Positions 36,503-41,593 of a DNA stretch of 64,000 bases are shown piece by piece. The notes beneath the pieces are model-generated. The model did not search any database and had not been told where the DNA came from. It saw only the letters and a list, made by a program, of their open reading frames with translations. A program made the position numbers and the translations under genes. Position 1 is the first letter of the stretch; every line of letters begins with the position of its first letter. Origin of the DNA: Eledone cirrhosa (taxonomy: Eukaryota); the NCBI GenBank assembly GCA_964016885.1, contig OZ024742.1, positions 224,316,001-224,380,000 of the forward strand, read 5' to 3'.

Positions 36503-36993
36503 TATATATACGATATTAAACAAATGGAAACTATATTTATAAAACCATATTTATTTCATTATACATATTTCGGGGATACCATATTAAAAATATGGCATGC
36601 CTTCTTCAGATAAAATACAATATATAAACATTTTATAAATAATTTTGACGTACCATAAATATTGACCAACCGTTATGTAAAAAGCTGGTTTGGTAGTGAG
36701 ATGTTTACAAATATTTAGTGTTAAGCACAGTTAAAAAGAAAGACAGAGTAAAAGAAGAAATGTATGTAAAGAAAAACAGAGAGAAATAGAAAGAGATAGG
36801 GGAGAGAGAAATAGTGAGGAGGAGAAAAAAGAGAGGCAGCTGAGGCAACAGATGAATAATAATAATTCATCATACAAATTGAGAGATTTAGGAGGGAGGG
36901 TGTACTGTAATTATTTAGTTATAGTGTATAATATGTATAATGAAATAAATATGGTTTTATAAATATAGTTTCCATTTGTTTAATATCGTATAT
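36503..36993. mobile_element. Fold-back element F (Penelope-like derivative)
   Basis: ~65-bp inverted arms at 36503-36569 and 36930-36993; hammerhead-like motif inside the left arm. Confidence 0.65.
36557..36614 (-). ncRNA. Hammerhead-like motif HH-F
   Basis: Minus strand: TTAT-CTGAAGA-A-GG(C)ATGCCATATT-TTT-AATATGGTAT(CC)CC-GAAA-TATGT-ATAA. Helix II is strong; the helix III/cleavage register is non-canonical. Confidence 0.55.
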
Positions 36994-37245
36994 CTACTCC
37001 AAAACTTGTCGAGTGCTTTATATCAGTTATAACATATTTACTTGTTGTAACCCAACAATTTTATATAAAACTTTTGCATATATATATATATATATATATA
37101 TATATTTACGTAGAGCACGGAGCGTCTGTGCATAAACACACATGCACCGTGTCGTATTTTGACAGTATTTAATAAGCTCCATATACGAGAACAGAGCCGT
37201 TATATGTAAAAGAAATCAAAGAACGCTTACATACTCAAACAGTTT

Positions 37246-37303
37246 TTATTTGCTGACAATGTTTCATCCACACCGTTGGGCAGGAATCATCAGAGCTTAA
37301 TAA
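37246..37303 (-). ncRNA. Minimal type-I hammerhead-like motif HH-A'
   Basis: Minus strand: TTATTAAGCT-CTGATGA-TTCCTGCC-CAAC-GGTGTGGAT-GAAAC-ATT-GTC-AGC-A-AATAA. Confidence 0.7.
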
Positions 37304-37654
37304 ACAAAACGCAGTGCTGAGTATAAGCTCTACCAAGCTTAGTCACACAAACAATTGGAATACAATAGTGGGTAAAAATAGGGAGATCGGAGAAGGCGAA
37401 CAAGGAGAGAGTACATGTTGGGGTTGTTATTAAGCACTACAGCTAAATGCTAGGGTACAGGCAGATTTTTTCACAAGATGCAGATGCAAGTGATGGCACA
37501 CAAAAGCAAAAAGTATAAACAATGGTTAAAACATATAATAAAAAAGTAAAAGGAAGATAATATAAAGAGATAAAAAATAAATAAAAAAGATAAAAAAAAT
37601 TTTAAAAAGGAAAAATAGGAAAAATAGGGAGAAAGAAAAAAAGAAAACGACAAA

Positions 37655-38015
37655 AAGAAAAAAAAAGAAAAAAGAAAAAAGAAAAAAGAAAAAAGAAAAA
37701 AGAAAAAAGAAAAAAGAAAAAAGAAAAAAGAAAAAAGAAAAAAGAAAAAAGAAAAAAGAAAAAAGAAAAAAGAAAAAAGAAAAAAGAAAAAAGAAAAAAG
37801 AAAAAAGAAAAAAGAAAAAAGAAAAAAGAAAAAAGAAAAAAGAAAAAAGAAAAAAAGAAAAAAAAAAGAAAAAAGAAAAAAGAAAAAAGAAAAAAGAAAA
37901 AAGAAAAAAGAAAAAAGGAGAAAGAAAAAAGAAAAAAGAAAAAAGAAAAAAGAAAAAAGAAAAAAGAAAAAAGAAAAAAGAAAAAAAAAAAAAAGAAAAT
38001 AAGAAAAAAGAAAAA
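37655..38015. repeat. (GAAAAAA)n heptamer array
   Basis: Direct reading; unexpanded in the mirror arm (~38590-38650). Confidence 0.9.
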
Positions 38016-38950
38016 GTTTTAAGCACATAAAAAGCCAGAGGAACCACATAAAAACAAGCTTTACACAAGCAAAGCGGGGTTATTACAAGATAGAGCTGAA
38101 GCAAAAGCCCAACAATAATGGTTTAGTTACTGTAAAAACACAGATCTGGCAAAGAGTTACTACATATGCATATTTACCGTAGAGGTTAAACCAATCGGTT
38201 ACATATGCCCTGATTGTCTAGGGTTTATAGAGATATTGGATTGTCAGTAGATAACAAATCAGTCTAAATTATACAACATGTGGTACCTGTCTATATACTT
38301 GTTGTACTCAGCTCTATCTTGTAATTACCCCGCTTTGCTTGTGTATGGCTTGTATTTATGTGGTACCTGTCTATATACTTGTTGAACACCCATGGGCCAC
38401 GTAATTCAATTACCTACTAGTATACCTTGTTTATGTATACTATGGCGAGGATTAAAATTACTCTGGGCTTTCTGGAGGTACCTTAAGAACTTCTTAGTAC
38501 TTATATAACTATAAATTACGGAGATCTTATTCACTTGTTATATATAGGGACCAGCGCTTAACTTCCTCTGGCTTTTTATGTGATTAAAACTTTTTCTTTT
38601 TTCTTATTTTCTTTTTTTCTTTTTTCCTATTTTTCCTATTTTTCCTTTTTAAAATTTGTTTATCTTTTTTATTTATTTTTTATCTTTTTATATTATCTTT
38701 CTTTTACTTTTTTATTATATGTTTTAACCATTGATTATACTTTTTGCGTTTGTGTGCCATCACTTGTATCTGCATCTTGTGAAAAAATCTGCCTGTACCC
38801 TAGCATTTAGCTGTAGAGCTTAATAACAACCCCAACATGTACTCTCTCCTTGTTCGCCTTCTCCGATCTCCCTATTTTTACCCTCTATTGTATTCCAATT
38901 GTTTGTGTGACTAAGCTTGGTAGAGCTTATACTCAGCACTGCGTTTTTGT

Positions 38951-39008
38951 TTATTAAGCTCTGATGATTCCTGCCCAGCGGTATGGATGAAACATTGTCA
39001 GCAAATAA
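38951..39008 (+). ncRNA. Minimal type-I hammerhead-like motif HH-A
   Basis: GCT-CTGATGA(38961)-TTCCTGCC-CAGC-GGTATGGAT-GAAAC(38989)-ATT-GTC(38997-99)-AGC. Helix I is GCT/AGC plus TTATT/AATAA. Confidence 0.7.
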
Positions 39009-39342
39009 AAACTGTTTGAGTATGTAAGCGTTCTTTGATTTCTTTTACATATATATATATTCATATATTATATATATATATATTCATATATATATATATA
39101 TATATATATATATACATATATATATATATATATATATATATATATATATATACACATATATATATATATATATATATATATATATATATATATATATATA
39201 TATATATATATATATATATATACATATATATATATATATATATATATATATATATATATATATATATGAATATATATATATATAATATATGAATATATAT
39301 ATGTAAAAGAAATCAAAGAACGCTTACATACTCAAACAGTTT

Positions 39343-39762
39343 TTATTCACATTGCTCACAATTGTTTCTTTGATCTGGTAGGTCTAGAGTTCGCTACTCG
39401 CTTGATGTTGCGACAATCGATCTCCAATACTTTGTTTATAACCAGTCGTTTTCATCAGAGCACGCGAGTACTCTAACTGGAGTACTACTTCTTCTACAGA
39501 AAATCTCTATATTGATGGATATGTGAACCTTATAGGAAAGAATTTAAAGATATTGGTTTTAAGAAAACACCTAACAAATAATGTTAAGAGGAAACTATGA
39601 AAATATCAAAAGAAAAAAAAAATGTTTTAACACAGTTTAAATCTGTAAGTGGGTAGATGTTAAATCTAGCTGAGTATTGGAGATCGATTGACGCAACATC
39701 AAGCGAGTAGCGAACTCTAGACCTACCAGATCAAAGAAACAATTGTCAGCAATGTGAATAAA
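39343..39762. mobile_element. Fold-back element E
   Basis: ~89-bp inverted arms at 39343-39431 and 39674-39762. Confidence 0.8.
39353..39462 (-). ncRNA. Hammerhead-like motif HH-E with extended helix II
   Basis: Minus strand: TGCT-CTGATGA-[83 nt]-GAAAC-AATT-GTG-AGCA. The mirror arm has GAAACAATTGTC-AGCA at 39736-39751. Confidence 0.5.
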
Positions 39763-40052
39763 GCCCTTATTGTATAGCAAACCATGTCACACGTCTTTCT
39801 TGAATTCTCTCTCTCTCTCTCTCTCTCTCTCTCTCTCTCTCTCTCTCTCTCTCTCTCTCTCTCTCTCTCTCTTTATATATATATATATATATATATATTG
39901 TTATACTTTGGGAGGCTCATGTTGCCAATAAGAAACCCACGCACCAGTAGCTTTCACTTCAATTTATTATAATAAATTTATAAATTTAGGAATTTATAAA
40001 TTTCTGGTTGGTTGGTTGGTTGGTTCCACAACGAGATGGTTGTTTATATATT

Positions 40053-40095
40053 GTCAAAGTTCTTTCGTCACACATTCTGTGACCTCTTCAGTGAC
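40053..40095 (-). ncRNA. Hammerhead-like motif HH-B'
   Basis: Exact mirror of HH-B. Confidence 0.65.
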
Positions 40096-40219
40096 TGGGG
40101 GTTCTTTTCTTTGTTTTTTTTTTGTGCCTCTCCTTTGTTCTGTCCTACGCCATCTTGTTTTTGGCGTAGGTCAGAACAAAGGAGAGGCACAAAAAAAAAA
40201 ACAAAGAAAAGAATCCCCA

Positions 40220-40262
40220 GTCACTGAAGAGGTCACAGAATGTGTGACGAAAGAACTTTGAC
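40220..40262 (+). ncRNA. Hammerhead-like motif HH-B
   Basis: GTCA-CTGAAGA-G-GTCACA-GAATG-TGTGAC-GAAA-GAACTT-TGAC. Helix I is GTCA/TGAC, helix II is 6 bp, helix III is minimal. Confidence 0.65.
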
Positions 40263-41593
40263 AATATATAAACAACCATCTGGTTGTGGAACCAACCAAC
40301 CAACCATAAATTTATAAATTCCTAAATTTATAAATTTATTATAATAAATGGAAGTGAAAGCAACTGGTGCGTGTGTTTCTTATTGGCAACATGAGCCTCC
40401 CAAACTATAACAATATCGGTTTCAACACACGTTTTCACATAAAGAATCTTGCTAAACAAATTCAGAAACGAAATATATATATATATATAATCATGCCTAT
40501 AATGATAACCTGTTATCCCGTATATATATATATTTATATATATATATATATATATATATATATATATATATATATATATATATATATATATATATATATA
40601 TATATAGAGAGAGAGAGAGAGAGAGAGAAAGAGAGAGAGAGAGTATATGAATCCTAGAGCGGTCAAATTAACGGTAACAACAGACGATCGGTACAAAATA
40701 GCTTAGGAAATCGGGTAAAGTACCCCTATAGATGGAAAAGAAATGACCATTGAGCTAAGGGATCTTTTTTTTTATTCGTCTATAGGTTTATTTTACTCGA
40801 TTTTCTAGGCTTTTATTTAACGACTATTGCTGCAGATATTTTCTGTTTTGGATTCCTACATTTTTTTAAAATTTCAAATTTCCAAGTGCATCGATAGTTT
40901 GTATAAAATGTTATATAATATATATATATATATAATATATATATACATATATATATATATACGTACATATAACCCCCCCCCCCCATCATATATATATATG
41001 TATGTGTGTGTAGATATATGTATGTACGTTTATATATCTATATCGATCTATCTCTCTCTCTTTATACATAATGTCTGTATGTGTGTATGTGGACGGTGAG
41101 AGAGAAAGAGTGCGAGAGAGAGAGAGAGAGAGGGAGAGAGAGAGAGAGAGAGAGAGAGAGAGAGAGAGAGAGAGAAAGAGCTATAAAAAGACATGGCAGG
41201 GAATAGAATAATATCAATCAACTTCAATTCATTGAATATGAAAGTAAAATCAATATTTATTTTCGTTAAATTATATTTAAACTGCTTCTGCTTAAAAATA
41301 AAAAAATGAAATCCTTTCTAAATATATCTATAACAGTAAATTATAGAGATATATTTCCCTTCAATCACCTTTATATTGGTGCACCTCCTTCGCTATCCCC
41401 AGGGGTAGCACATTCAGAATTCTGTCCACTGGGACAGAAGCCACATCCATCTGATGTTTTACAAAGAGCATGAAAGTATACTGTTGGTCTGACTCTTTCA
41501 GTATATCTCACTTGCTACCCTGCGGAGTAATACAGCCGCAATTCTGACCACTGTCTACACCCATCTCATATTTTACGACGGACATGGAATGAA

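Follow-up and report, generated by a model that had tools for sequence, protein, structure and literature searches.

Penelope-like elements (PLEs) are retroelements whose insertions, in published reports, contain an inverted 5′-truncated copy and a one-sided tail of 30–40 bp, with hammerhead ribozymes in the canonical clades (PMC8557442). Inverted pseudo-long terminal repeats (pLTRs) and 3′ extensions are likewise given as PLE traits by Goubert et al. (PMC8969392). Pairs of minimal hammerhead ribozymes (min-HHRs) on opposite strands, 100–700 bp apart, were reported in 2014, and single hammerhead motifs, the majority, were ascribed to probable truncated PLEs (PMC4209133). Here we describe a cluster of four inverted repeats (fold-backs), called F, A, E and B, which lie side by side at positions 36503–40416 of a 64,000-nt stretch of DNA (contig OZ024742.1, 224,316,001 to 224,380,000, forward strand; hereafter the window). 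We read the cluster as inverted pairs of 5′-truncated 3′ ends (pLTRs) of four PLE families, inserted successively at TA microsatellites, and put the probability of this reading at roughly two in three. That F, A, E and B are PLE insertion debris is very likely.

A sequence-only reading of the window had described four adjacent inverted repeats of largely different sequence, and these are present (Table 1). By blastn we found no homology between the elements, with one exception: 50 nt of A's end recur at 39298–39347. A and E have GCT-CTGATGA and GAAAC-A(A)TT-GTC-AGC in common and may be related. From left to right, the order is (TA)11, F, an 84-nt tail, (TA)14, a 95-nt tail, A, (TA)~128, a mirror of A's end, E, a tail of about 36–43 nt, (TC)33(TA)12, B, a 56-nt tail and (TA)8. 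If the calibration available for Octopus holds (a distance of 0.09 for 25 My; PMC13282606), the arm divergence of 3% would correspond to roughly 4 My, gene conversion being ignored. The left copy of A alone has an (A6G)n expansion (37540–38015, about 68 units); a short T-rich tract occupies that place in the right copy. A 30-nt direct repeat (38278–38307/38358–38387) has its first unit in the central spacer of A.

It had also been claimed that the elements end at or near (TA)n. As originally delimited, three of the eight ends touch (TA)n directly, and six do so once one-sided tails of 56–95 nt are added; the claim fails for E, which has (TC)n on its right and the mirror copy of A's end on its left. 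Target-site duplications (TSDs) are unreadable where ends lie in microsatellites. The mirror duplication (38989–39368) is centred on (TA)n and copies about 50 nt of A's end, TA interruptions included. We ruled out the 50-nt segment as a fifth insertion because those interruptions are mirrored too, and the mirrored end is likely a local rearrangement rather than a separate insertion. A second (TA)n-centred mirror, at 54795–55021, copies about 50 nt of the element end adjacent to it. Both mirrors likely arose by hairpin-mediated repair or template switching, and are possibly artefacts.

There are exactly six CTGANGA cores in 35500–41500, as previously claimed, and every one reads outward. We searched with a minimal type-I hammerhead descriptor in a strict form, with helix II of at least 3 bp, and a relaxed form, with one unpaired base allowed at helix II. 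The strict form accepts four of the six motifs and the relaxed form five. Dinucleotide shuffles of 36503–40416 gave means of 0.012 and 0.067, respectively, and reached the observed count in 0 of 1000 cases. For five of the six motifs a minimal type-I hammerhead fold is plausible, a number well beyond chance expectation; of the paired helices I and II formerly ascribed to all six, helix II of E is unclosed. Rfam yielded no hammerhead match at E ≤ 10 in 35500–41500 and none at gathering score in the window. Its 50 matches at E ≤ 10 in 35500–41500 were mostly miRNA hairpins, none of them at gathering score. The motifs, which escape Rfam, are minimal variants.

The earlier statement that each element carries hammerheads stands as far as cores in all four are concerned, with the restriction that F and E each possess a single complete core, their right arms beginning inside the ribozyme. 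The cores lie 1668 nt apart in A and 133 nt apart in B. The ribozyme of A has a helix I of 3 bp, U.U at the base of helix II, ACATTGT as helix III and a GUC triad. In B, helix I is 4 bp, an extra G precedes a 6-bp helix II, helix III is AGAACT and the triad is CUU. F has a helix I of up to 8 bp, a long hairpin as helix II, ATATGTAT as helix III and an AUA triad. The motif of E departs from this pattern: helix II is unclosed, GAAA lies 83 nt past the core, and the inner stem is flanked by 4 and 3 unpaired bases. Its 83-nt insert folds at -20.7 kcal/mol with the base open, and its triad is GUG in the arm with the full core and GUC in the truncated arm. The hammerhead of E is aberrant and likely inactive in this copy. 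We also considered an intron as the insert and rejected it, since the GT..AG choices made by eye leave helix II unrestored.

Helix III is palindromic or near-palindromic, and homodimer pairing was computed at -3.6 to -7.8 kcal/mol. When whole elements are folded, the opposite arm pairs with 14–18 of the 14–20 bases in the 3′ strand of every ribozyme. Because of this pairing, the prediction for the fold-back copies within read-through transcripts is that they do not self-cleave.

Public reads and contigs bear on E and B only: 4 of 23 listed public runs (among them X1, X21, X4 and X6) were aligned to 39300–40480, where 13,920 contigs of X1 and 136,883 reads of X21 lie. The E and B arms are very high-copy, and B is a very large family. 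Summed depth reaches 1.5 million on a B arm, as against 4.62 on the E spacer, although such a depth is not a copy number. The latter value comes from one contig over 39484–39675 in X1, and the spacer is possibly captured host DNA. Over the E motif and its insert (39340–39459), X1 depth is level at 9,000–13,000, and because it is flat the insert is seemingly a family trait. At the last base of the B triad, 25,894 of 35,436 X21 reads have A, with which the triad is still permitted. Among the 29 variants listed, none falls on the 22 core bases of B, about one being expected, which is not significant. X4 depth peaks in the bins that hold the hammerheads (75,578 and 71,789, as against at most 715 beside them); the library type is unrecorded and the peaks are only suggestive.

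The same runs show how the B hairpin varies. Its centre is passed into other sequence by 132 contigs in X1 (at 40163) and by 32,548 reads in X21 (at 40160). Elsewhere, antisense-to-sense joints occur at 39932>40439, 39936>40458, 39971>40406, 40091>40406 and 40158>40461, among the 15 of 100 joints listed. Since copies of B run past the turn-back point or turn at another place, the hairpin was made per insertion, and the proposal that each fold-back is an independent element is not supported. They are likely neither units that move whole nor tandem retrozymes. Two types of 3′ end are seen in B. In the first, 60 contigs exit at 40416 into (AT)n; in the second, depth stays high through the tail and 2,139 X21 molecules stop at 40462. 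Both arms of this copy have G at 40395 and its mirror, where C makes up 772,562 of 778,971 of X1 depth (99%), and because both hold a base rare in X1 they probably derive from one template in one event. A further X21 joint, 40431>40058, steps back 374 nt and is present in 24 reads with 3 starts.

These features would fit an insertion mechanism of the PLE kind. From PLE biology, a reverse transcriptase/GIY-YIG protein would nick both strands within (TA)n, and each 3′ OH would prime reverse transcription of element RNA from one of two internal start sites, which would give just one arm a tail. The two cDNAs would halt early and be joined at their 5′ ends, so that two 3′ ends face outward, and DNA between them may sometimes be captured, as in the E spacer. 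At AT-rich DNA, a PLE protein of Anolis cleaves the two strands and extends each; two internal reverse-transcription start sites define the tail, and insertion in vitro is independent of ribozyme cleavage (PMC11167929). In intact elements the ribozyme may cut multimeric transcripts as a dimer, by way of the palindromic helix III. In the fold-backs it is predicted to be masked by the opposite arm, so that a read-through transcript would fold into a long double-stranded hairpin. The clustering can be explained by insertion at TA repeats together with the reported tendency of PLEs to land beside earlier PLE copies (PMC6765202). The single hotspot once proposed is borne out only to a modest degree, with four of six within 3.5 kb (p ~0.02) in a stretch chosen post hoc; two more hammerhead-like motifs lie elsewhere in the window, at 33350 (plus strand) and 55124 (minus strand).

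In the published descriptions we cite, endonuclease-positive (EN+) PLEs of the Penelope/Poseidon, Neptune, Nematis and Hydra groups (PMC8557442, PMC3846280) resemble these insertions in having an inverted truncated copy and a tail at one end. Further shared traits are a hammerhead close to the 3′ end, insertion into (TA)n (reported from Hydra and Naiad, with a bias towards microsatellites under discussion for Neptune), the lack of a clear TSD, spacers of captured DNA and a possible open reading frame (ORF) start at the pLTR end. Unlike theirs, both copies here are too short for any ORF body, and the tails measure 36–95 rather than 30–40 nt. The short helix I (3–4 bp) of A, B and E, the extra base before helix II in B and F, the palindromic helix III, the close opposite-strand pairs and the many families per genome all recur in metazoan PLE min-HHRs (PMC4209133). 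Differences from these are the 83-nt folded insert with an open base in E, the distance between the cores of A, which exceeds the reported 100–700 bp, and, at the helix II base of A, U.U in place of G10.1-C11.1, also seen in an axolotl hammerhead (PMC7229834). Thus the Penelope-type minimal hammerheads, TA targeting and retroelement origin put forward in the sequence-only reading are supported, whereas its suggestion of an undescribed system is not, since the anatomy is already described for PLEs (PMC8557442, PMC3846280, PMC4209133). The parental elements were probably protein-coding PLEs from a clade that bears hammerheads and prefers TA, perhaps one resembling Neptune or Hydra.

Two other systems are close. 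Animal non-LTR retrozymes lack ORFs, carry a type-I hammerhead and are kin to PLE pLTRs (PMC7229834, bioRxiv 10.64898/2026.07.22.740005). Unlike retrozymes, which are head-to-tail tandems making circular RNAs, the copies here are inverted, lie on opposite strands and are predicted to mask each other's ribozymes. No head-to-tail partial tandems were seen in F, A, E or B, and Tandem Repeats Finder finds no hammerhead tandem unit in the region. Naiad_Obim and Naiad_Ovul of Octopus (supplement of PMC8557442, in part) share the (TA)n preference, the inverted insertions and cephalopod hosts, and Naiad_Ovul is listed with a hammerhead half core. They differ from F, A, E and B in that Naiads are without canonical hammerheads, and the 3′ end of Naiad_Obim is dissimilar by eye. 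Six motifs of 11–12 nt from A, B, E and F gave no relevant match to the portion of that supplement compared, with one unrelated match (to the F motif). As far as found in the literature on cephalopod PLE hammerheads, these families and ribozymes are undescribed, though curated libraries (O. vulgaris on Zenodo, Repbase, Dfam) may hold them. One giant squid paper lists 235 Rfam hammerhead-1 matches that are not analysed there. Two metagenome loci with the A motif (L001 5509–6258, L002 5765–6514) proved to be a chance match in one phage tail-fibre-like gene region without blastn similarity to the window, and the B motifs had 0 matches in viral and prokaryote-genome collections.

Several results weigh against four PLE families as the source. 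Apart from a long interspersed nuclear element (LINE) ORF, a Pfam scan of 24 stop-free frames (23 from the region) detected no PLE domain, its two weak matches (E 0.02–0.03) being under the cut-off. This agrees with the earlier description of the elements as non-coding and leaves no PLE reverse transcriptase or GIY-YIG domain linked to F, A, E or B or present within the window. A has no coding traces over about 650–800 nt upstream of its hammerhead. A published PLE pLTR carries 12 ORF codons, or 22 with its tail (PMC3846280). Here, an ATG at 40391 opens a frame of 9 codons in the B arm, or 28 with the tail, and an ATG at 37182 in A opens a frame of 25 codons that runs to the TA tract. Neither differs significantly from shuffles (p = 0.13 each), nor does E (p = 0.43), and F is without an ATG. 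Searched against proteins, the tail frames of B and A had no match, a weak result given queries of 39–40 residues of which about 12 derive from microsatellite. The tails of F (84 nt), A (95 nt; both assigned by position) and B (56 nt) exceed the published 30–40 bp. Every X1 joint listed is supported by a single contig, and false joints can arise when the reference is palindromic. Among the pieces listed, none spans the whole of 39300–40480 or the centre of the B hairpin.

The leading alternative is that at least one family among B, A and E is a specialised PLE derivative, a short non-autonomous RNA with pLTR and hammerhead but no ORF, mobilised in trans by a PLE protein, with the fold-back still made at insertion. 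We regard this as possible though on the unlikely side. The absence of coding trace over up to ~800 nt upstream of the ribozyme in A and the very high read depth on B would suit it, and there are precedents in Chlamys MRC1 (PMC8557442), in pLTR-derived retrozymes (bioRxiv 10.64898/2026.07.22.740005) and in pLTRs that mobilise DNA in trans (PMC3846280). However, strong 5′ truncation alone yields plentiful ORF-less ends (PMC4209133, in part); no ORF is expected because the copies are 5′-truncated, and its absence is not evidence of non-autonomy. No fixed 5′ end is seen, as B copies extend upstream past 40160. Given an octopus host, parents with a coding region are plausible, since O. vulgaris is reported to have 31 Penelope-like families that are near full length and recently active (PMC13282606, which in the portion consulted mentions neither hammerheads nor ribozymes). 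A bolder version, which we find more doubtful, is that family B, possibly joined by A and E, is an extremely abundant, dedicated ORF-less PLE parasite of a cephalopod. It would be a partner of Penelope elements comparable to a short interspersed nuclear element (SINE), seeding the genome with ready-made RNA hairpins, and family E would carry a hammerhead variant with a conserved 83-nt folded domain in place of helix II.

It is highly improbable that the four are Foldback DNA transposons or miniature inverted-repeat transposable elements (MITEs) whose terminal inverted repeats carry hammerhead-like motifs by accident. Inverted ends, absence of an ORF, high copy number and TA at the borders are what such elements would show, but the arms are asymmetric (a one-sided tail, and right arms in F and E that begin inside the ribozyme), the motifs are above chance and fit the PLE hammerhead consensus, and there is no fixed unit moving whole, since the turn-back point of B varies and the family extends beyond it. 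An origin of the inversions as fold-back artefacts of sequencing or assembly is scarcely tenable: although no listed piece spans the whole stretch and the two near-perfect (TA)n-centred mirrors (39175, 54903) are themselves possible artefacts, the arms of A, E and B differ by 2–3% substitutions plus indels, a 153-nt X4 contig crosses the junction of the E spacer and right arm (39614–39766) with 0 differences, and other inversion junctions of family B are present in X1 contigs.

If the cluster is a set of truncated PLE insertions, as we favour, it contributes the ends of four PLE families, probably cephalopod ones, and illustrates clearly how PLE insertions are built, and is otherwise of small import. 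It also warns annotators that such stubs resemble MITEs or microRNA hairpins, the best Rfam matches all being miRNAs below threshold. Should B prove non-autonomous, PLEs would have in it a major SINE-like parasite, and double-stranded RNA a mass source, in an animal group known for heavy A-to-I editing.

Table 1. Features of the four fold-back elements and the mirror between A and E, in window coordinates.
Feature	Position	Strand	Remarks
CTGANGA cores	36609 (F); 37293, 38961 (A); 39458 (E); 40091, 40224 (B)	-; -, +; -; -, +	
F arms	36503–36569 / 36930–36996		substitutions 1/67
F main copy	36511–36929	-	putative pLTR/3′ end; no tail; stops at (TA)11, 36489–36510
F hammerhead	36552–36617	-	CUGAAGA at 36609; predicted cut after 36560
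F inverted 5′-truncated copy	36930–36993	+	begins inside GAAA
F one-sided tail, 84 nt	36994–37077	+	assigned by position; reaches (TA)14, 37078–37105
A one-sided tail, 95 nt	37106–37200	-	assigned by position
A arms	37201–37662 / 38591–39053		substitutions 13/460, plus 5 gap columns
A extra arm pair, 61 nt	38039–38099 / 38308–38368		
A left copy	37201–38099	-	core at 37293; predicted cut after 37255
A central spacer	38100–38307	none	
A right copy	38308–39049	+	~200-nt insert (about 38364–38561); ends at (TA)~128
A right hammerhead	core 38961	+	predicted cut after 38999
Mirror duplication of A's right end	39240–39347	-	centred near 39175; joins E at shared AATAAA
E arms	39342–39431 / 39673–39762		substitutions 2/90
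E main copy	39342–39465	-	CUGAUGA at 39458; 83-nt folded insert; GAAAC-AATT-GUG-AGC
E spacer	39466–39672	none	low copy in reads
E inverted truncated copy	39673–39762	+	GUC triad; palindrome ACAATTGT
E one-sided tail	39763–39798	+	common to other copies (X1, X6 pieces)
B fold-back	39895–40416		arm substitutions 8/252, plus 7 gap columns
B left copy	39898–40156	-	no tail; ends at (TA)12; core 40091; predicted cut after 40057
B right copy	40157–40416	+	core 40224; predicted cut after 40258
B one-sided tail, 56 nt	40417–40472	+	family-wide; ends at (TA)8

Elsewhere in the window, 54824–55350 has a CUGAUGA at 55124 on the minus strand, with a closed helix II and a long helix III region. Between TA tracts, the unit at 54929–55350 has two direct (tandem) copies of its 3′ end that are about 75% alike, and on the far side of (TA)25, at 54824–54878, is an identical mirror copy of 55 nt, within the mirror at 54824–54983. 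This is likely a fifth PLE-type insertion, with retrozyme-like tandem ends. At 33100–33480, between (CA)n and (TATC)n, a plus-strand CUGAUGA at 33350 is accompanied by an extra A, a 4-bp helix II and GAAA, and is probably another PLE 3′ end.

A 5′-truncated LINE at 33557–35700, inserted in (TATC)n, has an open reverse transcriptase plus zf-RVT frame of 607 aa (Pfam RVT_1, E 3e-19) and is followed by a shorter diverged LINE copy at 35770–36280. The best named relative of the ORF is an Argonauta hians protein (62% identity), indirect evidence that the host is probably a cephalopod, as the sequence-only reading supposed. Host-like sequences deposited as metagenomic or in a metagenome-assembled genome are 62–72% identical to the ORF. 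By our reading the LINE is L1/Tx1-like. An 18-kb tandem array at 5425–23496 is made of a 41-bp unit (about 441 copies, 95% matches), with a 123-bp higher-order period and strong strand skew. On the minus strand, 53196–53945 is a Ser/Thr/Asn-rich open frame of 249 codons with no Pfam match, possibly a host exon. Minisatellites with 17-bp units occupy 1–1447 (about 87 copies) and 55835–56017 (about 11).

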